Assembly: GCF_026210795.1 (NCBI RefSeq)
Contig: NC_089435.1
Span: 3,286,001 to 3,350,000 of the forward strand
Direction of reading: 5' to 3'
DNA: 64,000 bases
From: Rhizophagus irregularis
Lineage: Eukaryota
Shown: one piece after another, positions 15,332-54,900 of the stretch
How the letters are laid out: every line of letters begins with the position of its first letter
How positions within the stretch are numbered: the stretch's first letter is position 1
Translations under genes and position numbers: made by a program
Notes under the pieces: model-generated
What the model was told of the DNA's origin: nothing
The model's database searches: none
The model's input: only the letters and a program-made list of their open reading frames with translations

Positions 15332-15754
15332 CAGTTGCGTCGGAAAGTAACGCCCGATTCACAATTACATAGTAAATTACATATATAAAATGAATTCCGT
15401 ATTTTATAATTAAAACGGTTTTTGCATTTTGACTTTAAAATGATATAAAATTAGAAATAATTATTAAAATAAATATAAATATATGTGCATCTTGAAATTA
15501 TCTATTTTTATATGTAAATTCTTTTTTTGGATTTAAAACATATAAAAAAATACTTTTTTACATTACAATTAAAATATCTCTTGCATTTTAACTTTCCCAA
15601 AGTTTAAATATCATTTTTCTAAAAGAATATGATATTAACTTTAAAGTAATATAAATTTAGAAACAATTATTAAAAGAAAAATAAATATGTATATAGCTTG
15701 AAATTTTTTATTTTTATATGTTTACTATGCGGGCGTTACTTTCCGACGCGACTT
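15332..15754. mobile_element. Tc1/mariner-like MITE
   Basis: 25-bp TIR CAGTTGCGTCGGAAAGTAACGCCCG (2 mismatches); TA on both sides. Confidence 0.85.
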
Positions 15755-16373
15755 TACAAATTAAATTATGGTTATTGATTTTTACCATTCCTAATTATTA
15801 TGTGTTAATTTTGCCAATAAATAAAATTTAAAAAATTACTCAAATGTTAATTATCGAGACATTTAATATGGATACAATGCATTTATTTGTTTTATAGATA
15901 TTAAAATTGGCTTGACATAAATTCAGAGATTTCAATATCAATAATACTTTATGGTCGAACAGATCGGCCAGAATTAGCATGTTCAGGTTGAGGCTGAATT
16001 ATAACCTAAAGCTGGCCAAAAATTCCAGACCTAAGACGTACAAAAAATTGTAGTTGATCATCAATTTGAATCATGCTAATCGACTATTATCTATGTCCTT
16101 TATTTGTATCTTGAATAAGTTTAATTTCGAACACATCTTGACCATGAATAAATTATTATGATTACAAGTAATTCCGGCCAGAATTACAGATCATTTATTA
16201 TAAGTAAATAATGTTTCACAAAGGTCACGTAATCAAATTAATTATTTTAGGATATTCCGAGTGAAATGTTACACGTACATAGCGTTACAGATATTTTTTA
16301 TTGCGTAATTTTTATTTGTGTTTGTGTTTGTGGTTTTTTTTTAATCCCTTGAAAAAAAATTGAGAAAAAAAAA

Positions 16374-20715: not shown

Positions 20716-21232
20716 AAAATGTCAGGCACGGTGTAACATTTTGTCAATCCACGCTTGATTTTTCACCCGCCAAATGCCTGATAGTTTAGTCCAACTCGGC
20801 TTGCCATAGTTACCGGTGCACCTGTCACACCTAGGCGCAAGTATGCAACAGCAGGTAACGCCTGAATGCGACAGGTGCGCCATGTTTATGCGCCTAAACA
20901 TGCGCCACATGCCATATAAAATAAGCTGCACCTTCCTAATCCAGGCGCGAGCTGTCGGCAAAACCCGGCACACTTTAATCAATGATGGCATTTACTGGAA
21001 ACGGTAGAGTCTGTTGCAGATCATCGGACTTTCGGTTAATTGATTTGCCTGATCTGCCTGGTGACATAATGTGGAATTCTAGAACTTAAATCGAAAAAAA
21101 AAAGTTCTATAATAAATTTAATACACAAATCAGGTTTAAGTGGAAGATCATAGTATAATGCCAAATAAATATAAATATCGTTATAATTGAACTTAGCTTT
21201 TTAAATTTCTTCTACTTCTTAAATATAACCAC

Positions 21233-26318: not shown

Positions 26319-27924
26319 TATTTAAATTAATATAACTTGTATATTTATTGATATATTTCATAGTTTTATCCATTTTATGATATTAAATAAAGGCATTTAA
26401 TTTTTTAAAATATTTTGATTAGTTAATTTATTCAATCTACTTATTACGAAATTTTCCAATCAATTATTAAAAAAATTACTGAAAACTCTAAAAAATTTAA
26501 AAAAAATTGAGTTTTTCTTTCGGCGCAGCAAAAATTTAGCACGGATGGAATCCAAAAGAAGTAACAGAAGATTCTACGAGGACCAATTGGACTGTAGGTG
26601 GTTTGCTGTGGGACAAAATTGCGGCAACAAATTTATCCGAGAAGGGATCAGCCATATCTGCCGCAGTAATCACGTGAGGGACATTATCGATCTCGGTATG
26701 GATTTTTTGAGAAAATTTAACTGGACGAGGACACCGTAGACTTGGACGGTAGTAATGTAAATAAAGACAGACAAAACCTGTTTTGTTCAAAGAAATACAA
26801 ATAGCTAACGTCGAGCAAGTCGTTGTAAAAGAAAAAGAATAAACCAAAGAGGTGGTAAGTTTGTTAGTAAGGTATTTCATGGTCGTAGGTATTAGCATAG
26901 ATTTTGGATTAAAAGTTAAATTAAATCATAAATAGCTAGTATGTTTTGGTATTTCGTTTTTTTGTTTTATGTTATAATTTTATTTTAGGATAGTTAGCAG
27001 ATAGATATTTTATTAGGAAATGCATGACGTCTAAATTATAACAAATTGTTGTATAATAATTGTTATAATATTAATAAAGTTAATAAAATAGAAAAAAAAA
27101 TAATAATAATACAAAATCCAATAATCATAATGATTACGACAAGTAACCTTATTAGGGTCCATTTTATTTAACCGAAAATTATTTCACTGACAATCAACTT
27201 ATTGACAGTGAGCTCACCAAAAATCATTTCACATAATTTTATTTTAAATATCAACTTAATATCATAGTCATAAAGAATAAAAGAAAAAAAATCTTGTGAC
27301 TAATTTTAATAATAAGAGATAATAAGAGTCTTTATATTATAATTATATTACATATATTAAGTGTTTTTTTATTTATTAGTGTTCACTTACGAAATTTCCA
27401 TGATATAAATACATTTTAATGAACTTACTACTAGTATTTATAAACAGTTATTATTAAATATAAAAAATTTAGAACTTGTCGGTAAAGTGACAAATAATCA
27501 TCATTGGTGAAAATGGTTGTAGTTGCCATAATAGTTAAGCGAAACAAACCTATTTCATTTCTAAAGTTAAAGTGAAAATTGACAAGGGGTAATCACATCC
27601 CTCATAAACACCTCCAAGAATTAAAGGTGAAGAAAGTCAAAAAAAAAAAGTGAAAAATGAATAATAAAAATTGAAAGAACAGAAATGAAGATAAAAAAAT
27701 CATGCAATATATTTTAGTCGCAAAGTACATCGTCAGCAGCAAAGGCAACAATCGGTAATTATCAATGATAAATAAATACATATAATTATAACCAAATAGC
27801 TAATTATACAAGTAGAAATTATTCCAATCCATTAGAAATATATGATCGTATAAGTAGACTTTATCTTCCTTTAAAACCATTAATAGATTTGATTTTATAT
27901 TTTCAAATCACAGATTTGGAAAAT

Positions 27925-30422
27925 ATGAAAGATTCTTCTAACCCTATTATACCAATTATGTTTATTCCTTTTAATAATGATGAGAATGAATGTTGTTATT
28001 GTAAAAGGTCTTATTCTGCAACACTCTTATTTAAACAAAAATATTGCAAGCATTGCCTGAAATTATATATTAAATGTACAGCTAGCAACAATATAGATGT
28101 ACATATAACTACAATAGATAATCAATGTAACAATAGACATAAACCAAGAAGTTTAGATTTTTGTATGCAAAATATCCATGAGTGGTGTAGTAATTGCTCT
28201 GAAATTTTATGCTTTAAGCAAATAGTCACAAATAATAGATTTCATGAAGTAAATAATAAGGATAATTATAGACAACAAAAATTGATTGAAAATGAAAAAG
28301 ACTGTAAATTATGTGGCAAAATAATTATTAAGCAGATATCTGTAAATATTATTGAATTTAAGCTGTGTTTAGATTGTTATAAAATTTCTTCTGGATGGGT
28401 AGAATCAACTTTAACTAAAGAAGTTATTCCAATTCTTTACTTACCTTGGTGGGATGCTTATAATCAATGTATAGCTTGTGATCAGTTTCTAATGCTTAAA
28501 TCTAATTGTCAAAAATTTTGTTCAAATTGCAAGATTATTTATATTGGATGTAATTATTGTTTGACAACAAATATCATATTTGGAATCACAAACCAATCTC
28601 AATGTAAAAGATGTAAAAGAATAGAAGTAGTATCTATCAATATTAATACCAAAGACGATATTGATACTTACAGAGAAATTAATGATGTTTTATATTATAT
28701 ACAGAATACAGTAGCATTTGATAGTTTTAATTGTAAGATTGCTAATTATTTGGACACTATTAATGAAAATTCAAACATATTAAATGTATATGACTATGTT
28801 AGGAAAATATTCCTTAATTCTAGAACAGACCAGCTATCAATAAATGAAATTCCACATACTCAAATTACAAATTTTAAGTATGTTGCAGAAGGAGGATTTG
28901 GTATTATCTATAAGGCGACTTGGTTAGGTCAAGATGTTGCTGTAAAAAGATTTTTGAATTCACATAACATTAGTAAATATTTTTTAAATGAGGTAATTGA
29001 TTTTTTCTATCGGTTTATTATATTTATATGTTTTATTACATTTATTAATTAATTTTGATAATTAATATATATATATATTTAGGTAAAATCACTTTTCCAA
29101 TGTTATAGTTTGGAATATATCATTGAAGTTTATGGTATTTCACAAGATATTGAAACAAAGGATTATATGTTAGTAATGAAGTATGCAAGTGGTGGAAATC
29201 TACATAACCATTTGCATAAGAATTTTAGTGATATTGCATGGAATAAAAAACTACATACTTTATGGAAAATTTTAGAAGGGTCAGTATTTATATTATATAT
29301 TTATTAATTATTGTTTAAATTTATAATATTAATTATTATTACTTATTTATTTCAGCCTAAATGTAATTCATAAAAACCATTTTATACATCGGGATTTTCA
29401 TAGTGGCAATATATTGATAGCACATCAAACATGGTTAATTTGTGATTTAGGATTATCATTACCTGCAAATTATAGTTTATCAAATAATGAAGTATATGGA
29501 GTAATACCCTATATTGCACCAGAAATATTTAAGGGTGGCGCATTTTCAAAGGAATCAGATATTTATAGTATAGGTATGATTATGTGGGAATTAACAACAG
29601 GTTGTAAACCTTTTGCTAATATTGATCATGACGTGGATTTGATTTATAAAATTATTGACGGAAAACAACCTGAAATTACAAAAGATACTCCTGAATGTTT
29701 TGCTAATTTAATGAAAAGATGCTGGGATTCTGATCCTTCAAGAAGACCTTTAATTACTGAAATTACAGAAAGTTTTAATAATTGGTATCACAAGAATAAA
29801 TATGTAGAAATATTCAAACAGGCAGAACAAAAAAGATTAGAATTAATACAATTGAAACAACTCGGTCCTGAATTCAGTGAAAAACCGCATCCTGGTGCTA
29901 TATATACTAGTAGACCACTAAGCTCCATGATTTCTAATTTATCTTCAACTAGATCATTTAGTATAAAACAAGGTACGTATTATTTGCTCCAAAAAAATGA
30001 TTTATGTTTGAAATTAATAATTATTTTTATTATTTTTAGATAATATACTAATTGATGACAGTGGAGGTAAGTTACTGAATTATATAAAATGATATTATGA
30101 ATAGTTAATTTTAAAATCGGATTAAATTCTTATAGAATATAATACCAAGGAACAAGATCTTGATATAGACATAAGGTATTGATATTAAATTATACTGTAA
30201 AAATTTTAAGTGTATTTTCTAATTTTAACATTATTTTATCTTAATCAAATACAATTTTTATTAGTGAATCAAAAAAGCGTAATATTACTAAAGTATTACA
30301 AATTGAAACTTCGGATCAAGGTAAATATTAAGATTTTATTAATTCATAAGGATAATATTAAATAACAGCTAATTCATTGATTTATTGTAGGAAAGCGCAT
30401 TAAAATAGTTAATAGAAATTGA
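27925..30422 (+). CDS. Paralogous TKL kinase with one Cys-rich repeat (partial tandem duplicate)
   Basis: Homology starts mid-repeat at ~27781; first in-frame ATG at 27925; same main intron positions; HRDFHSGN, DLG and APE intact. Confidence 0.75.
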
Positions 30423-40021: not shown

Positions 40022-40938
40022 ATGCAAGATAACAAAGATAAACGACCTTGTAAGAAATTAAAGGTGAACTTTACTTATAAAAAACCTACTGATGATGAGC
40101 TTCGCAATCTTATTGATAGTAGCCGATGTAAAAATACTGATTATTCAACTTCAAATTGGATACGAGCTTTGGAAAAATTTAGAACAGATGTTAATTATCA
40201 AGGATTGATTGAGGAAGTTGATACAAAAGAAGAATTAGAGGATCAGCTTTGTAGATTTGTTTATGCAATGAGAAAAAAAGATGGTTCTGAATATCATGTT
40301 TCTTCAGTTAATAGTTGCATGTTTGCAATAAATAGACATTTGAATAATAAGTCTGTCCTTTCAAAACCTATCAACATTATGGATAAAGATCAATATTACA
40401 AATTATGGCAGATTTTGAATGGTAAAGTTAAGAGTCTTGTGAGTCAAGGTCGTGGGGAGCGTAACGGTGCTGATGGATTTACTGAAGATGATCTTCTTCA
40501 GATTCTTGATCATCCAGCAATGTCTGGCAATGATCCTGCCAGTTTATTATATAGGATCTTTTTTTTTAATGCTATTTTTTTAGGGTTAAGGGGAGGAGAA
40601 CATTTCAATTTGCAGCTTCAAAATTTTATACGAAGAAAAGACAAATATGGTGGATTTGATGTTATCATTTACAAATCAAAAACTAATCAACGCGGTGCCA
40701 ATAATATTGAATCTCAAGGTGATAAGTTATACATTCCCGAAATACCTAGTATCATTGAAATGTATGAAAATTATTTTACCAAACGTCCAACCCAAGCTGA
40801 TCCACATTTTTATTTAAAGCCATGCAATATTAGTGAAGGTAAATATTAAAATTTTTTTTTTTTTTTGACAAATCTAATGTCAAAATTTTTATTATTTTTT
40901 ATTTCATATTATACAGTTGAATTTAATGGACCATGGTA
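40022..40938 (+). pseudogene. Crypton-type tyrosine recombinase, 5' part
   Basis: RKKDGSEY, LGLRGGEH (catalytic Arg), KSKTNQRG; exon 1 at 40022-40838, intron 40839-40916, exon 2 begins VEFNGPW and is then interrupted. Confidence 0.85.
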
Positions 40939-41376
40939 AGTAGTATGAAAACCCCAATTCTAGCTCACCCCCACCATATAATCTAAAATACTACCACTTT
41001 ATATAATCTAATTACCACCATCATATAACTTAATTACCATCATATAATCCACCTACCACTTTTACTATAATTTAACTACCACTTTATATAATCTAATTAC
41101 CACCATCATATAATTTTAATTACCACCATATAATCCACCTACCACTTTTCATATAATCTAGTTACCATCATATAGTTTTATTACCACCATACAATTCTAT
41201 TACCACCACACAATCTGAAAAAATTAACCGAACAAGAAATAGGATTTCAAAGCCAACGGAGCCAAAAAAGGTAAGGAATATTAACCCATCCAGGAAACCA
41301 GCCATGGAGTCAATAGAGCGGAATAGCAAGGCAAGCAATTACCCTTATACCGAGAAAAAATGTAATTGAATAAAAG
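40939..41376 (+). repeat. Left TIR (438 bp)
   Basis: Reverse complement of 52549-52987; one substitution and one 1-bp indel noticed; TACCACCATATAAT-like tandem array at ~40970-41215. Confidence 0.95.
41353..41376 (+). promoter_or_regulatory. Putative element promoter motif, copy 1
   Basis: AGAAAAAATGTAATTGAATAAAAG, 39 nt before ATG 41416. Confidence 0.6.
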
Positions 41377-41415
41377 GTAGGTACCAAGTAACTATACAGA
41401 TAAATAGTACATAAC

Positions 41416-41862
41416 ATGGTATATACCGCAGAAAAGTTAGCAACAATCTTTGGCTGCACAGTCTCTGATCTTATGGCTATCAATAGAGAGATTCTAAAAA
41501 GCCACCAAACCCCGTACGCAGTATCAGTAATCCCCGAACTTGTGGGCCATATCCTGGAATACATTCCAAGTAGAAATTTCGGGACACATCTTCTAGAAGT
41601 CAGCCCAATCTGGAGAGCCGAAGCTGAACGAATACTCTGGAAGCGGCATAAAGAAGCCGAGGAGGCATACGACAAAGCAGTAGAAAAGAAGGAAAAAGCA
41701 AATGATGCTCTTGGTCGATCAGAGGAGGAGGGTAATAGAAATCGTGACCTCCGTGAACTTGAATGGGAGGCATATCAAAAGGCTTGTAAAGAGAGAACAA
41801 ATGCTGCAGTAGAGCATATTATGGTAAAAGAAGCTATTCGCCGTTGTAGCTTACAACTATAA
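41416..41862 (+). CDS. Element-encoded F-box-like / coiled-coil protein
   Basis: IPELVGHILEYI...LLEVSPIWRAEAERILW resembles an F-box; followed by a charged helix. Confidence 0.65.
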   Translation: MVYTAEKLATIFGCTVSDLMAINREILKSHQTPYAVSVIPELVGHILEYIPSRNFGTHLLEVSPIWRAEAERILWKRHKEAEEAYDKAVEKKEKANDALGRSEEEGNRNRDLRELEWEAYQKACKERTNAAVEHIMVKEAIRRCSLQL

Positions 41863-42024
41863 GTTACTTAAGGATAGAGTATACATCAGGACAAGGATGT
41901 GCTCAGTGACTCGGATGACAATCCCGATGACTCAGATGGTGAGGAATAGTTTAGGAAGACAGTACTAATCTGTCTCCCTCTTTTTTTACCCTCATAGGGT
42001 AGGCGAACAATTAATTTTATTTTC

Positions 42025-42048
42025 AGAAAAAATGTAATTGAATAAAAG
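42025..42048 (+). promoter_or_regulatory. Putative element promoter motif, copy 2 (outside the TIR)
   Basis: Identical 24-mer, 22 nt before the PolB ATG. Confidence 0.65.
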
Positions 42049-42070
42049 AGGAGTATAAAAAGTTTACAAG

Positions 42071-45000
42071 ATGTCAACACATCAAGCAAGAAGTGCCCAA
42101 CACAGACAAGTCACCCGATCAGTTCTAGCTGAACTCAAGCAGGTACCTGTCAAGTCCATCCCATATCCCCGCTCAAATGCAAAATTGCAGGAATATGAGG
42201 ATGAGATCCGCCAAATCCGTGAAGCACAAGCGGCGGTAACCAATGAAGAGATAACCCGCATGATGCAAATTGATCCAGACCCACATTATGAGGTAGTCTT
42301 TGAACGTCGTGATCAGGTACGTATAGGAAAGGAGTTAACAGACTCAAACTTTACGGCTGATATTGCTATAGGAACACCTGGAGAGCATGACTATGCTTCA
42401 TTTCTTACAGCACACAGTCAAACAATCCAGAATATTCTTCAGGATGAAAGAAATCGATTGGGATCAATAAAAGTAAGAATTGGAATATTTGCCACAATAA
42501 GACGTTTAGATTCTTACCTTGAGGGATTATTCGGAGATGGTAACTTTAGTGAAGATGATGGAGTAGAGTATATCTACAGATATAACATACCATTTAAAAC
42601 TCGCAATATGCCAATCCTACCATCAACAGATATTAATGGTACATTTAACTTTGCATTAGCAAGAATCATGCAGAAAGTAGAAGACTATGTAAATTACGGA
42701 TCAGGTTGGGAATTCTATCGTGTAGAAAAAATATTTATAGAAATCTCGCAATTTCAACCACCCACAGGAGCAGGACATATACCACTCCCAAAAGATCTTG
42801 CCACGAAAAAGGGAGTAGTAAATCCAGCTAATGATGATGACAAATGCTTCCAGTGGGCAATCCTAGCAGCATTACATCCAGTAGAAAAGAACGCAGAAAG
42901 AATTTCCAAGTATAAGGAGTATGTAAATGAGTTAAACTTTGAAGGTATCGAATTTCCAGTACAAGCTGATGAGGTAATTCTAAGAAGATTTGAGCGACAG
43001 AACCCAACTATTGCCCTCTGCATTTGTGAATGGCGTGACCACCGCCTATGCCCAATATATGTTACCGATAGGGATGATGCAGAGGGCCGTAAAATAATAG
43101 ATTTAGTACTTATCAGTAACGGGGAAAAGCAGCACTATTGCTGGATTAAGAATATGAGCCGTTTAGTAAATAAACGTACAAAAGATGGACATGCAACATT
43201 TGTCTGCCGATGGTGTATCTCCCACTTCACACATCAACAAGAAATCCATAACAAACATGTAGCAATATGTCGAGGATTAAAGAAAACCCCACAAGCAGAC
43301 CGAATGCCATCAGTAAAGAAAGGAAATGATATATATGAATTCAAGAACTGGAAACGCCGCATGCAAGTCCCATATTACTTTGTTGCAGACTTTGAAGCCC
43401 TAGTAATGGACATACCACCCACAGATGAAGACAAAGATAAGAAAACCAAGAAAGTACAAGAGCAAATCCCCTGCTCATACTCGTATATTAAGGTAAGATA
43501 TGATGGTGTAAGTGAATCACAGAAGATATTTACAGGAGAAAATGCAGCACAAAAATTTGTAATCGAAATGCTAAATGAGGCTGAAGCAATCCGTAATGAA
43601 TTCAGAAACCCAATGGAAATGATGCCGTTAACAACCCAAGAGCAAGCAAGTTATGATAATGCAATAAACTGCTGGATATGTCGTAACCCCTTAAATGGAA
43701 ATAAAGTAAGAGACCACTGCCATATTACAGGAAGGTATCGAGGTGCAGCACATAGAGGATGTAATCTTGACTTATCCATAAAACCTCGTGAAATGCATAT
43801 CCCAGTAATCTTTCACAATTTATCAGGATATGATGGACACATAATTATGCAAGGAATTGGTGCAATGGAATGTGAGGATGATATTGATCCTATCCCTTAT
43901 AACATGGAAAAGTATATGGCATTCAAGTTAGGTTCCCTCCGATTTATAGACAGCTTACAATTCATGAAATCAAGTCTCGACAAATTAGCATCCAATCTAG
44001 GTGCAGAAAAATGTAGAGCACAAGAATGTAGTAATCCACAACACTTATGGCGAATTGATGCAGGTAGATGCTTTGCACATCCCGAAAACTTTAAGATAAC
44101 ACGAAGTCAAATACCACCTGAATTACTCGAGATTTATCTTAAAAAAGGTGTCTACCCGTATGAATACATGGATGACTGGAAAAAGTTTGAGAAAACTAGT
44201 TTACCACCTAAAGGAGCATTTTATAGCAAACTTAATGAAACCCACATTAGTGATAAAGAATATGAATATGCACAGTATGTATGGGAAAAAGCAGGATGTA
44301 AAACAATGCAAGATTATCATGTCATTTATCTCAAAACTGACGTCCTCCTACTAGCCGATATATTTCAGAATTTCCGAGAAATGGCCTTGAAAAAATATGG
44401 GTTAGATCCTCTCTGGTATTATTCAACACCAGGCTTCGCATGGGATGCACTATTCTTAATGACAGGGCAAAGATTGGATCTTATAACTGACCAGGACATG
44501 TACATGATGGTAGAACAAGGATTACGTGGTGGAATCTCTATGGTAAGTAAACGATATGCTCGTGCAAATAATCCAGGTATGGGAGAAGGTAAATGGACCG
44601 CAGATAAGCCCAAGTCATCTATTCTATACTTAGACGCAAATAACCTATATGGATGGGCCATGTTGCAATACTTACCTACAGGTAACTTCCACTGGATAAA
44701 GGAGGAAAACGAGTTATCTAACATTCAAAGGCAAATAGAAAGTAATGAAATACCAGACGATTCTTCTGAAGGATATATCCTTAAAGTTAAACTGGAGTAC
44801 CCTCAAGCCCTCCATTCACAACACACAGATTACCCCCTTGCACCAGAACGAATGAAGGTTAAGAAGGAATGGCTTAGTAAAAAGCAGCAGGAAATAATAG
44901 CACGCTCAGGACAACGATACACACCCACAGATAAGCTCATCCCTAACCTATTTGATAAGGATGAATATGTAGTTCATTATAGAAATCTCCAGTATTATGT

Positions 45001-45967
45001 TAGCCAGGGCTTAGTAATCAAGAAGGTCTATGAAGCTATAAAATTCGAGCAGGCTCCATGGATGAAACCATATATAGAATTTAACACCGCCGAACGTGCT
45101 AAGGCTAAGAATGATTTTGAGAAGGACTTCTATAAACTCATGAATAATAGTGTATTTGGTAAAACTATGGAAAATCTCAGGAAACGTGTACGTGTCTCAG
45201 TAGTACAACCCCAAACCCATCCCAAGAAATATAAAAAGCTTACCTCAGATCCTGCATTCAAGGGTCGTAAAATATTCTCAGAAAATCTTGTTGCAATCCA
45301 CCGACGAAAAGTGGAGGTAATGCTTAACCGTCCAACATATGTGGGTATGAGTGTGCTTGACCTCTCGAAGCTCTGTATGTATCAATTCTACTATGATACT
45401 CTTAAAGTACGATATGGTGAAAAAATCCAGTTATGTTATACAGACACAGACTCACTTCTTGTACAAATCCAAACTGAGGATATTAATGCAGACCTCATAG
45501 ATATGGCAGACCAATTTGACTTCAGTGATTATCCTAAAGATCATCCTGTACGAAAAGCATTAGGTGATAAGACTGACATAAATATGAAAATCCCAGGGAA
45601 ATTTAAGGATGAATGTAATGGAGCAGTTATAGCAGAATTTATTGGCCTCCGTCCCAAAATGTATTCCATTCTCAAGGTAGGGGATGAGACCACCAATCCA
45701 AAACATGGTATCCGTAAGGCTAAAGGTGTCCCCTCAAAGGTAGTTAAAAAAGAGTTCCACCATGAGCGGTATAATAAGGCACTCTTTGATCCTAAACATA
45801 ATGATACAGTCACCTTTAGAGCAATCCGATCTGATAGACATGCCATAAATGTTATAGAAATGTCGAAGGTAGGATTATCCCCTATGGATGATAAAAAATG
45901 GATTGCACAAGATAATATCACAATGTATGCACATGGAGATTATAGGATACCACAACTTGAAAATTAA
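42071..45967 (+). CDS. polB: Protein-primed family B DNA polymerase
   Basis: Exonuclease motifs ADFE, FHNLSGYD, YLKTDV; KGVYPYEY; polymerase motifs YLDANNLYG, KLMNNSVFGK, YTDTDS, KAKGV; EndoVII-like DHCHITG...RGAAHRGCN insert; 1298 aa, intact. Confidence 0.97.
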   Translation: MSTHQARSAQHRQVTRSVLAELKQVPVKSIPYPRSNAKLQEYEDEIRQIREAQAAVTNEEITRMMQIDPDPHYEVVFERRDQVRIGKELTDSNFTADIAIGTPGEHDYASFLTAHSQTIQNILQDERNRLGSIKVRIGIFATIRRLDSYLEGLFGDGNFSEDDGVEYIYRYNIPFKTRNMPILPSTDINGTFNFALARIMQKVEDYVNYGSGWEFYRVEKIFIEISQFQPPTGAGHIPLPKDLATKKGVVNPANDDDKCFQWAILAALHPVEKNAERISKYKEYVNELNFEGIEFPVQADEVILRRFERQNPTIALCICEWRDHRLCPIYVTDRDDAEGRKIIDLVLISNGEKQHYCWIKNMSRLVNKRTKDGHATFVCRWCISHFTHQQEIHNKHVAICRGLKKTPQADRMPSVKKGNDIYEFKNWKRRMQVPYYFVADFEALVMDIPPTDEDKDKKTKKVQEQIPCSYSYIKVRYDGVSESQKIFTGENAAQKFVIEMLNEAEAIRNEFRNPMEMMPLTTQEQASYDNAINCWICRNPLNGNKVRDHCHITGRYRGAAHRGCNLDLSIKPREMHIPVIFHNLSGYDGHIIMQGIGAMECEDDIDPIPYNMEKYMAFKLGSLRFIDSLQFMKSSLDKLASNLGAEKCRAQECSNPQHLWRIDAGRCFAHPENFKITRSQIPPELLEIYLKKGVYPYEYMDDWKKFEKTSLPPKGAFYSKLNETHISDKEYEYAQYVWEKAGCKTMQDYHVIYLKTDVLLLADIFQNFREMALKKYGLDPLWYYSTPGFAWDALFLMTGQRLDLITDQDMYMMVEQGLRGGISMVSKRYARANNPGMGEGKWTADKPKSSILYLDANNLYGWAMLQYLPTGNFHWIKEENELSNIQRQIESNEIPDDSSEGYILKVKLEYPQALHSQHTDYPLAPERMKVKKEWLSKKQQEIIARSGQRYTPTDKLIPNLFDKDEYVVHYRNLQYYVSQGLVIKKVYEAIKFEQAPWMKPYIEFNTAERAKAKNDFEKDFYKLMNNSVFGKTMENLRKRVRVSVVQPQTHPKKYKKLTSDPAFKGRKIFSENLVAIHRRKVEVMLNRPTYVGMSVLDLSKLCMYQFYYDTLKVRYGEKIQLCYTDTDSLLVQIQTEDINADLIDMADQFDFSDYPKDHPVRKALGDKTDINMKIPGKFKDECNGAVIAEFIGLRPKMYSILKVGDETTNPKHGIRKAKGVPSKVVKKEFHHERYNKALFDPKHNDTVTFRAIRSDRHAINVIEMSKVGLSPMDDKKWIAQDNITMYAHGDYRIPQLEN

Positions 45968-47022
45968 TATAATATATAAGTAGGAGGCAGCATAGTATCA
46001 GATGGCACAACTAATAATTCTTCTCGAGTAAATATTTTTTTAGGTCCATCAGATAACCTATATATAACCGGCTGCCCATCAACAACTGTGGAAGATTCAA
46101 TTGTATAAACTTTAGTAGACCATATTGGATCAGTTGCACGTCTCCTACCTTGGTAATCTGAGTTATCAAGTAAGTATCTCACAAGAGAACCAGCTGGTAA
46201 ACGTATTTCTTCTGCACCTACAGGTCTATCCTTCCGAATTTTTGAAGGTAGTGCATACACTTGATCTTTCTGGATTGCCTCAACTGGCAACATACCTAGT
46301 AGACGAGTATTAGAATTATTTAGCTCATTCACAATATCAGAAAGGTTCTTAACCCAGGCAGTATTCACACCTTCTGTAAGGAGTTCCTTTGCATCCTGTA
46401 TTTTGAAAAGTCTCTCTGCTAAAGTTCGATTATACCGTTCAACAATAGCCTGACTCTTATGAGTAGTACCCACCCGAATACGCACACCTTTTTCATCCAT
46501 TAATCGGATAACTTCATCCTTAAATTCTGATCCCCCATCTACTTGTAAAACTCTTGGCCAAATAAGCGGGCAGTCTGCTTTACCATAAATCTTTTTAAAT
46601 GCCTTAGCAACACGTGCAGAGCTGCGATCTTCTAGAGGTACTGAAGCTTTATATCGGCTAGCAACATCTACAATATTCAGACAGTATTTATACAGCTTTC
46701 TATCTACAGTATCATAGGGCATATATAAGATATCTGCTTGATGATACATATTTGGTCGAGTAATCTTATTAAAAGAAACCTGTGGAACATACTTGGGTAT
46801 AGGTAAGTGTATTTGCCATATAGCCTGTTTATGCAACCACTCTGTAATATCAGATATATTAAAATCATGGCCTTCAGCTTGCACTTTAGCCCAAAGTTTT
46901 TCAGGAGTACGATAATATCCACATGGATGGTAATAGATTTGTTGAAGGATATAATTTTGTTCGATTTGTTTATTAAATGTAGGGTCTATAAAAATCTGTG
47001 GAACTGGCAATGGAAGATACAT
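45964..47022 (-). CDS. Retroviral-like (rve) DDE integrase, Polinton type
   Basis: HQADIL, VDVASRY, QVDGGSEF, IVERYNRT (D-32-E spacing); first ATG at 47022. Confidence 0.95.
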   Translation of the reverse strand: MYLPLPVPQIFIDPTFNKQIEQNYILQQIYYHPCGYYRTPEKLWAKVQAEGHDFNISDITEWLHKQAIWQIHLPIPKYVPQVSFNKITRPNMYHQADILYMPYDTVDRKLYKYCLNIVDVASRYKASVPLEDRSSARVAKAFKKIYGKADCPLIWPRVLQVDGGSEFKDEVIRLMDEKGVRIRVGTTHKSQAIVERYNRTLAERLFKIQDAKELLTEGVNTAWVKNLSDIVNELNNSNTRLLGMLPVEAIQKDQVYALPSKIRKDRPVGAEEIRLPAGSLVRYLLDNSDYQGRRRATDPIWSTKVYTIESSTVVDGQPVIYRLSDGPKKIFTREELLVVPSDTMLPPTYILY

Positions 47023-49341
47023 CGTTAAAGACACAGATTACAAAGCTTGCACATACATTGCAATCACAAGAGCAATATATAAAATACCTGTATGGTGTAA
47101 TCGAGGGTCATGAATCTGAGATAGAAGAACTTAGGCAAAAAAATGCTGAGTTGCGTGCAAAGCTTAAGAAAGCATTAGAAACGGCATCACTAAAGGAGGA
47201 AGGGCTTCAAGCATTAGAACGTCAGCTGATTGAAGTTGATACTCTAAATATTCAACTCAAAGATCGAATAAAAGAACTTGCTAATAGACAACGGAAAAAC
47301 ATGGCAGCAATTCCTCCTGACCCTATTACAGAAATCTTAAATAATCGGACAACTATAGCAAATAGTGTAGCTGGTATTCACCTTGATCGTACAACTATAG
47401 CAGCACACCCTCATATAAATCATTTATTTAACACTGCAAATGATAGTCTTGATGCCATTATCCGATATGCTAATGAGTTGCGAAATATTATAGAAGATCA
47501 AGATAATATGGAGGATAGACTTGAAGGTTTGTTAGATGATGCACATAACCGTGAAGAATATCTTAGACGAGAACTTAATAATACACGTGCTACTATACTA
47601 AGAACAAGACGTACCTATGAGGATGCATATGCAAATGAAGTGCGTCATCGCCAACATTGGGAAGGCCTTGCACAAAATACTCAGATCCAATTGGCTAACA
47701 TCCAGGCTCAATTTGCTAACAGTCAAATCCAACTAGCTAATGTCCAGAGAGAACGTGATGAGAGTAGAAGAAATGCTCATAGATTATTACAGCGCTATAA
47801 TACTGAAACAGAGCGAAGTAGAAGGCGGGCTAATGGTATCATTCAGCAAGCTCGAGCATGGAGAGGGCAATTTTTAAACTGTCGCAATCATGGTCAAAAT
47901 TTGCAAAATCAGGTCAATAATTTGAATCAACAGATTCTAGCATTACAAAATAACCCTCCGGTAATACAACAACCTATAATGGCAGGATATGCACCTAAAA
48001 AATTTAGAGGAGCATCTGGTGAAGATCCAGAACTTTGGCTTCAAGAATTCAGGCAATGGTGTGAGTCTGCTGGACTTGATCCTGCTGCTAATGCTAGGAC
48101 TCGTGTTAGGATTCATGGGATCTTTGAAACTTTACTTGAAGATGATGCTAGAGATTGGTATGAAAGCGCATATCAAAGGAAAAAATTGGGAATGTGTAAA
48201 TCTTCTGGATAATACTGGTGTGGCCACTCTTGCTGCTTTTAATGCTTTGAATAATGCCGCTATACAGGCTGTAGCGGCGAATCAATTTCGTGGAGGGGCT
48301 GGTGTATTACATGGACAAGCAGCTGCAGATAATACTATTACTGGTGCTAATTTTATACCTGATCATACTGTATGGGATGAAGATTGGTCAATAGTCGAGG
48401 GTCGTCCTACTGATATAGCTGTTAATAATCCTAATGCTAATAATGGAGGTACAATTGTGGCTCCTGGAATACGTATTGGACAATTAATATATCGTTTTAA
48501 GCATTACTTCCCTACTATAACATCTGAAAAGTCTAAGCTTGCATTTAATGCTATTGTTCAGGGTAGTGATACTGTAAGCCGATTCTATTCTAAATTACGA
48601 AGAATGGTTAGACTTGCATATCCAATTCTTCCAGAGGTAAATCAGAATGAATTAGTACGGCAACAGTTCTTAAATGGTCTTTCCAGTGAAAATAAGTTGG
48701 ATGCGCGACGTATTGGTTTAGAAAATTCAGTTGCATCTATTCTGAATAAATTGGAAGAAGTTGAGAAATACAGGACAGATATGCCACCTACTCCTATAGT
48801 TACATACCAGGGTCCAACTTTAGCGGATATTGAGAATCTTATAAATTCTAAAATTCCTATGACTACGGCTAAATCATCTGCAGTACCAGTACCATCTTCT
48901 AGTCCATTTTCAAGTCCTCAAAATGATACATCATTTCAGAGATTACTTGCTTTAGCATATAAATTAGGTCTTCCAAGAGATATCGATATAAGTAAAGTAA
49001 CCCTTAGTGATCTTGAAATATTTATTGATACAGAACTTAATAAAAATTTACCATCTGACCATATTTACCGTGGTAATCAGGTATTTGGTATAAGTTCAGG
49101 TACACGCAAACCAAAGAAATCAAAGAAATGCTCAAGTTGTGGAAAATCTGGTCATACTAAGAGTTCCTGTCCAAAATCTAAGAAGGGAAAGAGGAAAACA
49201 AATTATGCACATGACTCCTCTGATTCCTCTAACTCTTCTGACGCCTCTGACTCCTCTGACTCCTCTGATAGTGATTCAGACTCTGGACATGCCTGCTATG
49301 GATTAAAAAAAAAAGCCTACAGAAAGGAAACGTGTAGATAA
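47010..49341 (+). CDS. Coiled-coil plus Ty3/gypsy-like Gag (capsid and CCHC knuckle), one +1 frameshift near 48163
   Basis: PKKFRGASGEDPELWLQEF, LEDDARDWY, IVQGSDTVSRFYSKL, QFLNGL, CSSCGKSGHTKSSC; removing one A of GAAA joins the two ORFs as DWYEAHIKGKNW. Confidence 0.8.
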
Positions 49342-50215
49342 AAAGCCTACTGATAAGAAAAAATCACAACTTGAAAGGCAGCGTATTATCTTTGAGGTTT
49401 TTATACAACTCTTAAAGCTTCTGGTTCAATCCTTCGTTAATGCTGTACCAAAAGAGACTGTTATATCTGCTTACAATGCTCTGAATGCTGAATTCATTAA
49501 TTATAAAGAACCAGTACTCAGTCAGCTTAAAGGAGAACCCTCGATAAAAACACGTGAAAAAGTTTGGGATAATGTTAAGGACCTTTTCACATCTATCCTT
49601 CATCCTATGATTTCGGTTGTAACTAATAGTATGGCTGCAAATTTAATCCGTAAAAATGATGATGTTATATGTAATAATGACTTATGGTCTTCTATAGCGG
49701 GTATTGGAATTGTTAACCGCAAGTCTGCTAGTGATGTAGTCACTATTAAGACCAAAGTAGTCGCACCTGAGAGTGAAAAATCTTTAGTTATTCCTACGAC
49801 AATTTTTGATACTGGTTCTGATAGTTCTCTGATATCTAACAATATTGTAAAGCGCCTAAATCTTGACGTTGATAGAAGTAATGCTCCTGATCTTAGTGGT
49901 GTTGCAACAAAATCTGATACTATTGGGACAGTATATGGTCTTGGTATTCTTGTATATGATGGGGAGAACTCTAAAAAAATTGAAGATGACTTCATGGTTG
50001 TTAAGAGTGATAAGGACTTTTTATTGCTAGGTGTACCTTGGATTGATCGTGCTAATGTCATTCTAGATTTCCAAAATCGGCAACTGACCATCCCTCTATC
50101 ATCACGTAAAAAAATTACCATTCCAATTTCTCTACATAAACGGAAAACTAACGTGACTTCCTTGCAGATGGATACTATCGACTTAAAAAAAATTCACACT
50201 CTCGAGGAAGATTAA
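49307..50215 (+). CDS. Retropepsin-like aspartic protease ORF
   Basis: IFDTGSDSSLIS and LLLGVPWI motifs; frame is stop-free from the A10 run (49305-49314), ~100 codons before ATG 49607. Confidence 0.88.
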   Translation, partial: KKKPTERKRVDKKPTDKKKSQLERQRIIFEVFIQLLKLLVQSFVNAVPKETVISAYNALNAEFINYKEPVLSQLKGEPSIKTREKVWDNVKDLFTSILHPMISVVTNSMAANLIRKNDDVICNNDLWSSIAGIGIVNRKSASDVVTIKTKVVAPESEKSLVIPTTIFDTGSDSSLISNNIVKRLNLDVDRSNAPDLSGVATKSDTIGTVYGLGILVYDGENSKKIEDDFMVVKSDKDFLLLGVPWIDRANVILDFQNRQLTIPLSSRKKITIPISLHKRKTNVTSLQMDTIDLKKIHTLEED

Positions 50216-50334
50216 CCTGTCATCTATGTGGAGCAAGTTTTGACTTTCCCTCTAAGTTAAAGCGTCATCTTGCTAGGAAAAATCCATGTGTTTCCCAAAC
50301 TTCTGCGGCAATGATGGGCAGTGGCGGGCAGTGA
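50185..50334 (+). CDS. C2HC zinc-finger extension in the -1 frame of the protease ORF
   Basis: After TTA AAA AAA ATT the -1 frame reads KNSHSRGRLTCHLCGASFDFPSKLKRHLARKNPC...*; not in the ORF track. Confidence 0.65.
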   Translation, partial: KKNSHSRGRLTCHLCGASFDFPSKLKRHLARKNPCVSQTSAAMMGSGGQ

Positions 50335-50406
50335 CAGGGCAGTGCCCAAATTTTTTCGGCAGTGACGGGCAGTAACAGGGCAGTGCCCAAATTTTTTCGG
50401 TAGTGA
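50307..50406 (+). repeat. GC-rich GGCAGTG array with duplicated GGGCAGTGCCCAAATTTTTTCGG
   Basis: Direct reading; lies between convergent ORFs. Confidence 0.85.
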
Positions 50407-50422
50407 TTAGCCTTTACAAATA

Positions 50423-50935
50423 TTACATTTGCCATGTTACTCTGATTTCTAGGTCTTTACGGGTTTCTATGAGTTTTTCAATGGCATTTCTATTTTTAAA
50501 ATATCGACTATATCTGATATCTAGCTTTTGAAGGTTTGGTAATATATGCAGGATTTCACTTAGCAAATCTCTAACGTCACCTTTTCCACCATAGTATTGA
50601 TAATCTATTATGCTAAGTTCCTGGATATTGGGACAAGCTTGTAGCATTTTTACAATACAAATGGGCCATAATTTTACTCCATCCATATTAAGCTTTCTGA
50701 TATATTTTCCACATACTGTTCCTGGTTTTGTGAGATGTTTGTACATTTGGAACTCCTTAATATTATAGAGGTTATAAAGGTCTGTTTCACCCCATAGGAG
50801 AGAGTTTGCTACTACAGCCCATTTTCGACACACTAATGCATAATTGCAAAGATAATGCCAACGGGAGTAAGTACCTTCATATGAAGTTTTGAATATCTTT
50901 TCTAAAAGTTCGAAAGGTAAGCTATTGTTTGTCAT
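50423..50935 (-). CDS. Element-encoded F-box / short LRR protein
   Basis: LPFELLEKIF...ALVCRKWAVVANSLLW; CPNIQELSI and LPNLQKLDI. Confidence 0.85.
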   Translation of the reverse strand: MTNNSLPFELLEKIFKTSYEGTYSRWHYLCNYALVCRKWAVVANSLLWGETDLYNLYNIKEFQMYKHLTKPGTVCGKYIRKLNMDGVKLWPICIVKMLQACPNIQELSIIDYQYYGGKGDVRDLLSEILHILPNLQKLDIRYSRYFKNRNAIEKLIETRKDLEIRVTWQM

Positions 50936-51039
50936 GGTATCTCATATGAGATATTGATGAAGAAGTTTTATTTAATTAGATTTTTTCTTAGGATAAAATA
51001 ATTTGAACATTTCTTTTCTATCAATAGAAAAAACCAGAC

Positions 51040-51831
51040 ATGCTTACTTTTAGTGAACTTACTCCATCTCTTACTGTTACTGAATTTAAGATCAATGTTG
51101 AAGGGCTTGATTACACCGTGCTTGGTCATAAGCTTGAACCTACTAAGGATGTTATTGCCATTAATAGCAACTTTATTCATAAAGCTTTTGAGGGTTATGA
51201 ACAGTACTTGTCTAAACCAAAAGGTGAGAGGCGATGCAGACGAAGTACACCTGACAATCCATTAAATAGACGGCGACGTACAGGGGATGGTAGCACTTTT
51301 AATGCATGCATTGAGTTTGTTATCATCTTAGCTGATACTGTACATACTATTCGTTATTTTCCTAAATCTGGTAGTATACAAGTTTTCGGGTCTTTTGATC
51401 CTGTTGCTATCTTCTTACGTTACCTTTCTGAATGTTCCCTACCTGAATTTTCTTCTGTAGAACTTGTGGGTGGAAATAAGGCTCTCCTGCGCAATTATAA
51501 ATTTGTGATTAATATTGGGGGTGATAAGTTTATTAATCTTTCTACCTTAGCATATGCTTTAGAATCTATAGATGGTATTCGTGAGATTCTTCCCTTTCCG
51601 ATAAAGTATATTAAGAATGATGCAGGTGATATTCATTCTAAAATTGCTATAATCTTTACTTCAAAGATTCGGGTACATATCTGGCCTAAATCTGGTAAGG
51701 TTAATATATTTGGCACTAAGACTGAATTGGATGCTGATATGGTTTATAAGTTCTTACAGAAGTTGTTTTCTAATCCGAATGATTTTGGGGATTTTATTTG
51801 TGATGCACCTATTCCAGATTGTGAGAGGTAA
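51040..51831 (+). CDS. TATA-binding-protein-like protein resembling asfarvirus B263R
   Basis: Two TBP-like repeats (IRYFPKSGSIQVFG; VHIWPKSGKVNIFG); AINSNFIH, GDGSTFNACIE and C-terminal PIPD match my recollection of ASFV pB263R. Confidence 0.8.
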   Translation: MLTFSELTPSLTVTEFKINVEGLDYTVLGHKLEPTKDVIAINSNFIHKAFEGYEQYLSKPKGERRCRRSTPDNPLNRRRRTGDGSTFNACIEFVIILADTVHTIRYFPKSGSIQVFGSFDPVAIFLRYLSECSLPEFSSVELVGGNKALLRNYKFVINIGGDKFINLSTLAYALESIDGIREILPFPIKYIKNDAGDIHSKIAIIFTSKIRVHIWPKSGKVNIFGTKTELDADMVYKFLQKLFSNPNDFGDFICDAPIPDCER

Positions 51832-51852
51832 AAAAAATGGTTTCACTGAGAA

Positions 51853-52524
51853 CTAAAAACCCTCTATTTGTAAAATCCAGCAATCGCATTCCTGACTTCT
51901 TGTTGGCATAAGACATTCGTCACATAGAGTTATAGCCAACTCATTTTTTAGTCTATCCAGCTGACTCTCGGTGGTCGGTGCAAGATTCTGATAGTATTCA
52001 TTGAATTCATTCTGCTCTACTTCATCTATGTCTTCATCTGTGTCTTCGTCCATATCTTCATCTCCTTTAATATGGTAGATGCTGAATTCATTTCTATATT
52101 CATCATTAGGATTCGTGAATATTCTTTGTATATTGTAATCTATAATGTTGAATGTTGTAGGTTTCTTTTTTGATAATATTTCTACTAAGTCTAATAATGC
52201 ATATGCTAATTCTTTATCCTCTGAGAAGTTCTTAATGATATCTGAAAATCTTTCATATATTGCCATCTCATCTGGTAGAATAGAATATCTTATTCGTGAT
52301 AAAAGTGATGGATGTATCCATATATCATCACCTTCTAACATCTCATCAAATATTTCTACTAGCTCTTCTAATCCAGATACTAACATACTTTCTTTGCTAA
52401 ATTCGGAATCTAAAGCTTTTAAATATGCTATATCTAAATACCACATTATTTCCTTTACCCATTCTTCTATGTTGAGTTCAAACTGGCCTAGTATACGTCT
52501 TAGTAATGGTCTGTATTGTGACAT
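51853..52524 (-). CDS. Element-encoded hypothetical acidic protein with C-terminal CxxC...CxC
   Basis: 223-aa ORF just inside the right TIR, preceded by the shared motif and TTACAAGATGTCA start context. Confidence 0.7.
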   Translation of the reverse strand: MSQYRPLLRRILGQFELNIEEWVKEIMWYLDIAYLKALDSEFSKESMLVSGLEELVEIFDEMLEGDDIWIHPSLLSRIRYSILPDEMAIYERFSDIIKNFSEDKELAYALLDLVEILSKKKPTTFNIIDYNIQRIFTNPNDEYRNEFSIYHIKGDEDMDEDTDEDIDEVEQNEFNEYYQNLAPTTESQLDRLKNELAITLCDECLMPTRSQECDCWILQIEGF

Positions 52525-52548
52525 CTTGTAAGTCTTTTATATGTGAAT

Positions 52549-52987
52549 CTTTTATTCAATTACATTTTTTCTCGGTATAAGGGAAATTGCTTGCCTTGCT
52601 ATTCCGCTCTATTGACTCCATGGCTGGTTTCCTGGATGGGTTAATATTTCCTTACCTTTTTTGGCTCCGTTGGCTTTGAAATCCTATTTCTTGTTCGGTT
52701 AATTTTTTCAGATTGTGTGGTGGTAATAGAATTGTATGGTGGTAATAAAACTATATGATGGTAACTAGATTATATGAAAAGTGGTAGGTGGATTATATGG
52801 TGGTAATTAAAATTATATGATGGTGGTAATTAGATTATATAAAGTGGTAGTTAAATTATAGTAAAAGTGGTAGGTGGATTATATGATGGTAATTAAGTTA
52901 TATGATGGTGGTAATTAGATTATATAAAGTGGTAGTATTTTAGATTATATGGTGGGGGTGAGCTAGAATTGGGGTTTTCATACTACT
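52549..52987 (-). repeat. Right TIR (439 bp), including promoter motif copy 3 at 52549-52572
   Basis: Reverse complement of the left TIR. Confidence 0.95.
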
Positions 52988-53661
52988 ATGGTATCATAAG
53001 CAACATGTGTCTGAAAAAGAAATTAAATCCTTTATGAAAAAAATTGTTACCTTAACCGGAATTAACGTGGATGATCGCAAAATTAGTAACCATTCAGGTC
53101 GGAAAATGCTAGTACAAATATTAAAGCGATGAGGATTTTCAAATTCTGAATGTATGGCAAGTACACGACATAAGTCTGAGCAAGGGCTTGCTAGATATGA
53201 GCGTCCAGAAACTGAAATTCAACGAAATAATGCTTTTAACCTTGTTGAAGCATTTGGTTTTAATAAAAATAATATTCGATCAGGTAAAAATTTGAAATTT
53301 TTAATCATTAATAAATGACCTGCATTCTAATTTTCTTCTATAGAAGAATCAATGGAACAATCAACTTTATCAACAGACAATTTCGTTGTTGCAAAATCAT
53401 TGCTTAATGGTAATATTCTAAAATTTTATTCTATTTTTTGATAATCAATTTAACAAAATTGAACTTTTTCTAGATAATCGTGAAGTTATTAATTCGGCAA
53501 ACAGTAATATTAAAGTTACAAGAAGGCCATTAAAAGATTTAAATGAAATTCAAGAAAATAAAAGTCAAAATTTGGAAGAATTAGTTTCGAAATTAACAGC
53601 TGATAAAGTTTTTATCAATTCTGTTATTATTTTCAATAATAATCCTAATAGCCATAATTAA
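52988..53661 (+). pseudogene. Crypton-type tyrosine recombinase, 3' part
   Basis: Continues in frame WYHKQHV...ISNHSGRK (HxxR)...TRHKS...LARYER (catalytic Tyr); in-frame TGA at 53130-53132; two further GT-AG introns. Confidence 0.85.
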
Positions 53662-53849: not shown

Positions 53850-54900
53850 CCCCAATTTGGATATATACTTTTAACTAAAAACCAGTATCTGGGTTTTTGG
53901 ATATTCCATATATTCTACATTGTAATTTAGAAAAATATTAGTTATTAAGAAAATTTAGGACTTCCGGAAAGAATTTATACCTCTTTCAAAATTTTATCAA
54001 CGTTTTGTGAGTTATATAAACATTTTTGAGCCACTTTCATATATGGTAATCTTTTCCAATCATAACAAGATCGTGAACCTTCTTCCCACATTGCTGAATA
54101 TAATGCATTGAAATATTTTTGCTCACTTCTTTGATATTATTGAACTGACTGTATGGTATCCATTCAAGTATTGTTCGGTAGAAGATAATATCATTTAACT
54201 CACTTGACTTAGCATATTTTAATTGTCTCTTAAATAAAATTATCAATTTTTTTCATTATTACTTGCCCAGTTTGTAAAATTTGCTTTCAAATAGTTAGTT
54301 TGGCACTGTCTACACAACTTAGGCCACACAAATTCGAATTTTCGGTTCACTTCACCCGGCCGGGTCACTTTTTCAAATTTCAATAAAAAAAAGTTTATAT
54401 ATAAAAAATTTATCACGTGATCAGGACGTAAATTTATTGGCGGGTAAGTTTATCACGCGGCTGAGAACTTCTAGAGCGAAAATAAATTCCTCCCTTTTAA
54501 AAGTCAACCAATCAAATGTCACGATTTTATATATAAACTTTTTTTACTAATAAACAATAAACCCTGGGTCCCCGGGTCGATTTTAAATTTCAATGTTACG
54601 TGAACCGAAAAATTGAATTTGTGTGGCCTTATCTGTTAAACATCCAAATTATAACAATTATTCCCCACATTTACTACATCGTTCAAATGCATACTTTTTA
54701 TACTCTAAAACCATAATATAATCTTTTATATATGTATCTTGAGATGTTCCATATATTTTAGGAATTCTAATAAGAATCTCAATCGAATAATTTTCTCTAA
54801 TCTGTTGATAAACAATATGAATTAATATAACGTAATATTTATAAGAGTGTTGAAATTAAAAATTCACAATGAAATTTTATACCTTATTGAAAAATTCAGT
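53850..54900 (-). pseudogene. Degraded kinase-family gene
   Basis: LEWIPYSQFNNIKE and YGISxxPDT-type fragments with frameshifts; interrupted by a MITE. Confidence 0.7.
54322..54628. mobile_element. PIF/Harbinger (Tourist-like) MITE
   Basis: TIR GGCCACACAAATTC...TTCGGTTCAC; 3-bp TSD TTA on both sides. Confidence 0.88.

Follow-up and report, generated by a model that had tools for sequence, protein, structure and literature searches.

Can a Polinton keep its replication and integration genes and carry a retroelement Gag and protease in place of the jelly-roll virion genes, and what would such a Gag be for? This question is raised by a 12,049-bp element at positions 40939-52987 of a 64,000-nt stretch of Rhizophagus irregularis contig NC_089435.1 (the whole stretch is referred to below as the window). 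The preliminary description, made from the letters of the window, had proposed a chimeric self-synthesising DNA element. In the present study, a stable chimera of Polinton replication and integration genes with a retroelement Gag-protease module was supported by the constancy of the gene set among loci and by selection on Gag. The element is real, conserved and selected; it is also unexplored, and new evidence was obtained for double frameshifting and for a link with asfarviruses.

Gene content, predicted folds and relatives

The element is bounded by terminal inverted repeats (TIRs), the main arms of which (40939-41278 and 52648-52987) comprise 340 nt and are 100% complementary. A second pair of arms (41264-41376 and 52549-52661, 113 nt, 95%) brings the whole TIR to about 440 nt, and the same hexamer at both ends forms the target-site duplication (TSD). 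TIRs of several hundred bp with a 6-bp TSD correspond to those of Polintons/Mavericks. The element has seven genes, and open reading frames (ORFs) take up 10,688 of the 11,172 nt between the TIRs (96% of the interior). The protein-primed B-family DNA polymerase (pPolB) and the integrase are both open, and the family PF03175 was found on near-identical pieces of pPolB. All these points agree with the preliminary description. The starts of the integrase gene and gag overlap by 13 nt, head-to-head. The GC content is 36-39% within the element versus about 20-35% in the flanks.

Canonical Polintons/Mavericks (Polintoviricetes, adintoviruses) share pPolB, the rve integrase, the long TIRs and the 6-bp TSD with the element. 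Unlike them, it lacks a jelly-roll major capsid protein (MCP), ATPase and adenain, and has Gag-retropepsin, a TATA-binding protein (TBP) and an F-box protein instead; the last two were not named in the preliminary description. The absence of the double jelly-roll MCP follows from the positive assignment of each ORF of at least 260 aa to another family or fold. The Walker A motif ([AG]x4GK[ST]) of an A32/FtsK ATPase was not found in any of the six frames. No Pfam match to the adenain Cys protease was found among 10 ORFs, and the protease present is a retropepsin. The ORFs orf1 (148 aa) and orf223 belong to no family by the Pfam scan, which was the sole penton check on these two. The jelly-roll fold was seen in none of the ORFs modelled, a set to which orf1 and orf223 did not belong.

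The region 47010-50334 had been read as encoding a coiled coil, Gag capsid motifs, a CCHC knuckle, a retropepsin and a zinc finger. The domains were upheld by Pfam, AlphaFold and structure search; the region itself, however, consists of four reading-frame pieces in the window and is not a single ORF. The coiled coil occupies 47010-47978, and the capsid domain (CA) begins at 47979. The Pfam matches of the region (Retrotrans_gag, zf-CCHC, aspartyl protease, zf-C2H2) are weak, and Retrotrans_gag is matched by 30 of 72 aligned Gag homologues. A profile of the homologues finds the PEG10 CA (E 6e-5), a Copia virus-like particle protein and DDI1. Since the CA of the window copy is broken, a database copy spanning CA to protease (P0188) was used for the AlphaFold model (mean pLDDT 72.6, about 90 within domains). 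Its CA C-lobe matched HERV-K Gag (Z 10.1, rmsd 2.8 A, 87 aa), both CA lobes together matched the EIAV CA (180 aligned residues, Z 9.1, rmsd 6.8), and the protease matched DDI1-type proteases (Z 15.1, rmsd 3.0, 120 aa). Of the first 36 rows in the unbiased structure search, almost every one is a capsid protein or a retropepsin. The predicted CA and retropepsin folds are thus supported.

With Ty3/gypsy-type Gag, PEG10 and retroviral gag-pro-pol, the element shares the two-lobed CA, the CCHC nucleocapsid domain (NC) and the aspartic protease of the retropepsin type. In contrast to retroelements, it has no reverse transcriptase (RT), RNase H or long terminal repeats (LTRs), a C2H2 finger comes after the protease, and the integrase is a separate antisense gene. 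The earlier statement that these retroelement parts are missing stood: neither RT nor RNase H was found in the window, the RT-type YxDD pattern occurs in none of 55 homologues longer than 600 aa, and a repeat search of the window revealed no LTR-like direct repeats around gag. A zinc finger, not RT, follows the protease in all six loci reaching beyond it.

The statement that no description of this architecture was known did not survive. The protein clusters of three ORFs of the window include the GenBank TPA proteins DAC81702, DAC81703 and DAC81708 (identities 99.6, 99.6 and 97.4%). The last is entitled 'TPA_asm: hypothetical protein [Rhizophagus glomeromycete fungus MELD virus]' and belongs to an 11,297-bp record; the accessions DAC81702-DAC81708 number seven, as do the genes of the element. 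The MELD virus represents essentially the same family, so the element is already deposited and the architecture is not a first sighting. The legend of Fig. 5 in Starrett et al. 2021 (PMC8502044) lists TBP and Matrix/Capsid/NC/Pro (Gag/retropepsin) labels. Judging by the text of the legend, the Gag label very probably belongs to this element, and the Gag annotation is likewise very probably already on record. Sections 3.4 and 4 of that paper are silent on Gag, on frameshifts and promoters, and on an asfarvirus link. The PolB of the MELD virus has also been placed in a tree (10.1101/2022.05.25.493380).

Table S1 of PMC4028283 lists Polinton-1_GI (P_Gi1.1), an 11,954-bp element of Glomus (Rhizophagus) intraradices without MCP, penton, ATPase and protease, and the absences are interpreted there as a concerted loss of morphogenesis genes. 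It resembles the present element by host, size and gene absences only. Other Glomus/Rhizophagus Polintons described in the literature (P_Gi1.2) have an A32-like ATPase, and ATPase-bearing relatives therefore coexist in these genomes. Rhizophagus Polintons or Mavericks are mentioned without Gag in the relevant passages of PMC4409740, 10.64898/2026.06.19.733378, PMC11296320, PMC11952901 and PMC8647823. Literature searches, with subscription journals largely outside their coverage, found no study analysing this architecture.

The element is one recent insertion of a multi-copy family of Glomeromycota. R. irregularis proteins clustered at 90% identity give 21-99 members for each gene, and the gene order of the element recurs in runs of consecutive accessions on several R. 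irregularis contigs; copy number is understood here as protein clusters plus accession adjacency. Homologues of Gag occur in R. clarus, R. diaphanus, Diversispora and Entrophospora. A metagenome scan yielded 23 confirmed loci among 184 pattern matches. The integrase gene is head-to-head with gag in 12 of the 13 informative loci, the other 10 of the 23 beginning inside gag. Seven loci reach pPolB, and L005 and L006 go on through F-box, TBP and orf223, arranged as in the element. Inverted ends are common to L004 and L005, and orf1 is missing between TIR and pPolB in a diverged family (L004, L007). The lowest identities to the window are 52% for pPolB, 37% for the integrase, about 31% for CA and 33% for the protease. 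More distant relatives of pPolB are 32-45% identical, and the few named ones are animal proteins.

The preliminary description had proposed looking for Gag-protease in diverged families and estimating dN/dS of Gag. Gag-protease is kept in the metagenome loci down to the lowest integrase identity. Relative to L004 and L005, dN/dS amounts to 0.14-0.25 in CA, 0.11 in the protease core and 0.30 in the coiled coil (dS is above 1, near saturation); comparisons between close copies give 0.25 in gag and 0.07 in the protease. These codon comparisons indicate that Gag is under purifying selection. Strong constraint acts on pPolB as well (pN 0.19 vs pS 0.76). A Gag confined to one copy, the lack of a CA fold, or a jelly-roll capsid or ATPase had been named beforehand as grounds for giving up the chimera. 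Instead, Gag is present in many copies, the predicted CA fold is there, and neither a jelly roll in the modelled ORFs nor Walker A was found.

At least four CA types with 35-42% mutual identity exist, shuffled independently of protease and integrase, as judged from pairwise identities and not from a tree. The proteases of P0285 and P0184, for example, are 99% identical and their CAs 39%; P0020, L014 and P0021 are other cases of CA exchange. It seems that CA domains have been swapped between lineages, which is a new observation. The donor retrotransposon of Gag was not found: homologues are at most 1096 aa long among 27 hits of 8000 scored and at most 911 aa among 150 of 202 listed, with the contexts of the most distant Gags outside the scope. 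In IMG/VR, the pPolB patterns gave no matches and none of 49 matches to the Gag patterns was confirmed; a single terminal-sequence match (L024) proved to be unrelated to the element.

Frameshift junctions, TBP and the early-promoter-like motif

Three frame breaks separate the four pieces of the Gag-protease region. The break inside CA, near 48167, is seen neither in the other loci nor in annotated copies and is either a lesion of this copy or an error in its assembly. The other two coincide with A runs. In each of the eight loci with a protease match, Gag and protease meet at an A run (shift of -1 in five loci and +1 in two, no shift in one; +1 in the window), and many independent Gags terminate a few residues past a Lys run. 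The protease/finger junction is -1 in six of six loci and in the window, and the shift yields a C2H2 finger of 38-75 aa. As far as can be judged from the frames, Gag, protease and C2H2 finger appear to be joined by two conserved A-run frameshifts, a feature not reported before. Two successive frameshifts are likewise found in beta- and deltaretroviruses.

The 263-aa ORF has 66 homologues among 492 candidates, and all named ones are from Rhizophagus. Sequence searches of this ORF against PDB gave no matches, and Pfam TBP is matched by only 4 of 46 members of the family; the assignment was settled by the fold. The model (pLDDT 88.5) has the fold of TBP. Among named proteins, it comes closest to the B263R homologue of abalone asfa-like virus (E 4e-16, TM 0.74, 22% identity); the E values are 3e-10 or weaker for the remaining named TBPs of giant viruses and 5e-7 for the cellular TBP. 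The top Atlas clusters are of Nucleocytoviricota. By its modelled fold, the product is an asfarvirus-type TBP, which is new here.

A motif agreeing with the core early motif of African swine fever virus (ASFV; PMC8906413) at 8 of 10 letters lies 34-51 nt upstream of orf1, pPolB and orf223; the motif copy before orf1 is contained in the inner end of the left TIR. Variants precede the F-box and TBP genes within the same range of distances, so that all five genes other than gag and integrase are covered, and four of the seven motif matches inside the element occupy such upstream positions. In diverged loci, the motif was found before five of the six such genes examined (pPolB, F-box and TBP in L004-L007; two genes of L015) and was missing before the last ORF of L005. 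None of the eight gag or integrase starts examined is preceded by it. An asfarvirus-like early-promoter motif thus seems to precede the non-structural genes and not gag or integrase, which is also new. T runs come 4-230 nt after the gene ends.

The published record offers a context for these features. In ASFV, the TBP gene belongs to the early class and its product has been proposed to work at late promoters, while transcription ends at poly(T) (PMC7163114). In R. irregularis, a giant endogenous viral element (EVE) related to Asfarviridae was reported in one of five strains, with a GC content of 36.6%, similar to that of the element, and no dsDNA virus had been isolated from arbuscular mycorrhizal fungi by then (PMC10640383). 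The pacmanvirus transpoviron is, as is predicted for the element, a TIR-bounded linear DNA with a giant-virus-type early motif, and employs helper promoters (PMC11788076).

Some sequence details can be noted separately. A TATATA hexamer occurs at 47075-47085, about 60 nt upstream of the integrase start and within conserved gag codons, and likewise in L005 and L014; TATATA is called an ASFV-like late motif in the pacmanvirus paper (PMC11788076), and here it could be a coding coincidence. A tandem 41-nt duplication ending in T6 (50317-50398), a possible terminator, stands just after the zinc-finger ORF between convergent genes, and L005 has a T7-A7 pair between the convergent TBP gene and the last ORF.

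Proposed cycle and alternative explanations

It is likely that the linear DNA genome of the element is packed in Gag particles, and likely that its transcription depends on an asfarvirus-like giant virus. The whole model, a Gag-encapsidated linear DNA satellite of an asfarvirus-like fungal giant virus with virophage-like dependence in transcription, is about evenly balanced, with doubt slightly prevailing. According to it, the RNA polymerase of the helper would read the observed early motif before pPolB, TBP, F-box, orf1 and orf223, and pPolB would replicate a free linear copy from the TIRs, by analogy with Polinton biology. The predicted asfarvirus-type TBP may then help to activate gag and integrase as late genes without the motif. 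Slippage at the two A runs would make Gag the main product, with Gag-protease less abundant and Gag-protease-zinc finger scarce. The C2H2 finger, standing at the place of RT, may recruit the DNA by binding to the repeat units of the TIRs, and no packaging ATPase would therefore be needed. The protease would mature the shell, and the integrase, delivered with the DNA, would insert it into host chromosomes, where the insertion with a TSD is observed.

Related systems combine these features differently. Mavirus also has pPolB and integrase. Virophages possess jelly-roll virions and transpovirons have no capsid, and dependence on a helper is for the element a prediction. Caulimoviridae keep dsDNA in a Gag-related capsid and have a CCHC finger and an aspartic protease, as predicted for the element; unlike it, they replicate by reverse transcription, without pPolB and integrase. 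More speculatively, the family could be a lineage of protein-primed dsDNA viruses of mycorrhizal fungi without reverse transcription, Gag-shelled virophages bridging Varidnaviria and Ortervirales, with a protease-matured Gag shell, a frameshift-fused finger replacing the packaging motor, and an asfarvirus-like helper; this is proposed tentatively and is rather doubtful. Should the DNA indeed be enclosed by Gag, virion modules would have been exchanged between viral realms in a lineage of Polintons, and a shell of the retro type would contain a genome with no RNA stage. Live giant-virus infection of arbuscular mycorrhizal fungi would also be indicated, indirectly, by the asfarvirus-type TBP and the early motif. 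Intact copies are present in a cultured model fungus, and these questions are thus directly testable.

Several observations weigh against the reading of a Gag-shelled, helper-dependent satellite. The CA of this copy is broken, and the CA scores (Z 9-10) concern helical bundles, which are prone to chance matches according to the tool and make each score modest singly. One locus, L009, carries this Gag without an upstream integrase, another ORF being found there. No stable or stimulatory RNA structure was found after the A runs (9 of 9 folds, z -1.45 to +1.03); slippage at the runs by ribosome or polymerase is therefore likelier than a pseudoknot-driven shift, and, because the Gag/protease frame varies as well, a homopolymer assembly error may be involved. 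The early motif was defined post hoc, occurs frequently in AT-rich sequence (87 matches in the window vs 106 expected by shuffling) and shows no genome-wide enrichment; its single-site shuffle p values are 0.015-0.08, and two of the sites lie within the TIR and are not independent. The depletion of poly(T) from coding strands fell short of significance for runs of 6 or 7 T (0 observed vs 0.8-1.3 expected per set), and that of 5-T runs was seen in host genes too. The giant EVE was found in only one of five strains, while the element family shows recent expansion; mobilisation may therefore proceed without a helper.

A virus or transposon independent of any helper would be transcribed by the host RNA polymerase II, perhaps steered by the TBP, with Gag particles carrying DNA and integrase between coenocytic nuclei. 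The many recent near-identical copies (the clusters of 21-99 members) and the strain restriction of the giant EVE are consistent with this, and Mavericks are reported to have expanded recently in R. irregularis, with low-methylation copies. The asfarvirus-type TBP, the positioned early motif missing from gag and integrase, and the dense intron-free layout with overlapping head-to-head starts make it unlikely. A transpoviron-like passenger, the DNA of which travels inside giant-virus virions and the Gag of which is a nucleoprotein core, factory scaffold or interference factor and not its own shell, has a precedent in the asfarvirus-associated transpoviron with TIRs and helper promoters (PMC11788076). 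A conflict gene would also be expected to show such independent shuffling as is seen for the CA types, of which there are at least four. Purifying selection has nevertheless kept both CA lobes, NC, an intact protease and a retroelement-style frameshift stoichiometry, as suits a shell that assembles and matures, and the passenger seems improbable.

The transcription helper may also be thought of as a cytoplasmic linear plasmid (a pGKL2-type virus-like element, VLE) with its own RNA polymerase. Such plasmids likewise use pPolB and TIRs. A relationship between the ASFV early motif and the promoters of K. lactis VLEs has been stated (PMC7163114). The TBP is of the asfarvirus type, however, and no such plasmid was seen in the data analysed, making this helper very improbable. 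A second, retro-type route, with element RNA packaged by Gag and copied by the RT of a host retrotransposon, would explain the CCHC knuckle, the gag-pro layout and the related Gag of L009 in another context. It is highly unlikely in view of genes on both strands, TIRs in place of LTRs and the strongly constrained pPolB. A chance fragment of an LTR retrotransposon nested in a single Polinton copy would agree with the frameshifted Gag of this copy. This explanation was refuted by the presence of Gag in multi-copy clusters, by the same junction and order in diverged families and by purifying selection, and neither direct repeats around gag nor RT after the protease speak for it.

Coordinates, insertion site and other observations

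The features of the element and its insertion site are collected in the table.

Table. Positions within the window of the element's features and of the gene that it interrupts.
Feature	Position	Strand	Remarks
Left TSD, 6 bp	40933..40938	+	hexamer recurs at 52988-52993
Left TIR	40939..41376	+	perfect arm plus extension; internal 19-86-nt repeats
orf1, 148 aa, no family	41416..41862	+	97.4% identical to DAC81708 (over 114 aa)
Early-promoter-like motif before pPolB	42035..42046	+
Similar early-promoter-like motifs	41363 (+), 51001 (+), 50978 (-, variant), 52562 (-)
pPolB, 1298 aa, open	42071..45967	+	exonuclease and polymerase motifs
rve integrase, 352 aa, open	45964..47022	-	Pfam rve, E 8e-9
Gag	47010..49341	+	coiled coil, two-domain CA, CCHC knuckle, basic and acidic tail
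A10 run, Gag/protease junction	49305..49314	+	conserved slippage site (predicted)
Helical linker and DDI1-type retropepsin	49307..50215	+	DTG catalytic motif; Pfam and structure search
A8 run and -1 frame C2H2 zinc finger	50185..50334	+	position of pol in retroelements
F-box-like protein, 170 aa	50423..50935	-	PF12937, E 1.5e-6
TBP-like gene, 263 aa, asfarvirus-type	51040..51831	+	by predicted fold; 99.6% identical to DAC81703
orf223, acidic, no family	51853..52524	-	C-terminal Cys motifs; 99.6% identical to DAC81702
Right TIR	52549..52987	-	inverted-repeat comparison
Crypton-like tyrosine-recombinase gene, split by the element	40022..53300	+	host target; DUF3504/QRICH1 matches on left side

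The left part of the split Crypton-like gene (40022-40938) matches DUF3504 (E 8e-7) and QRICH1 (E 2e-5), and its C-terminal part, in which a stop occurs, restarts to the right of the TSD (52994-53300).

Three of the metagenome loci have peculiarities of their own. The Gag of L009 (L009:1-2076) has a CA 71% identical to that of the family and no N-terminal coiled coil; the ORF upstream of it encodes 92 aa in two similar halves, with no useful Pfam match, and this locus may represent another element type using the same Gag. A second, stand-alone and frame-broken protease copy with a D-I-G active-site variant lies between the zinc finger and TBP in L015 (L015:3516-3957); it is 78% identical to the element's own protease and is preceded by the early motif. 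L002 (L002:4254-8678) is a truncated copy, extending from the middle of the protease into unrelated DNA with a Plavaka transposase (E 5.5e-26).

Elsewhere in the window, 42-nt inverted repeats (83%) 239 nt apart at 54314-54636, with no ORF, possibly represent a MITE. At 21197-30043 there is a tandem pair of host kinase genes, the long N-terminal regions of which are repeated and rich in Cys, and F-box-like LRR (leucine-rich repeat) genes are located at 13499-17843.

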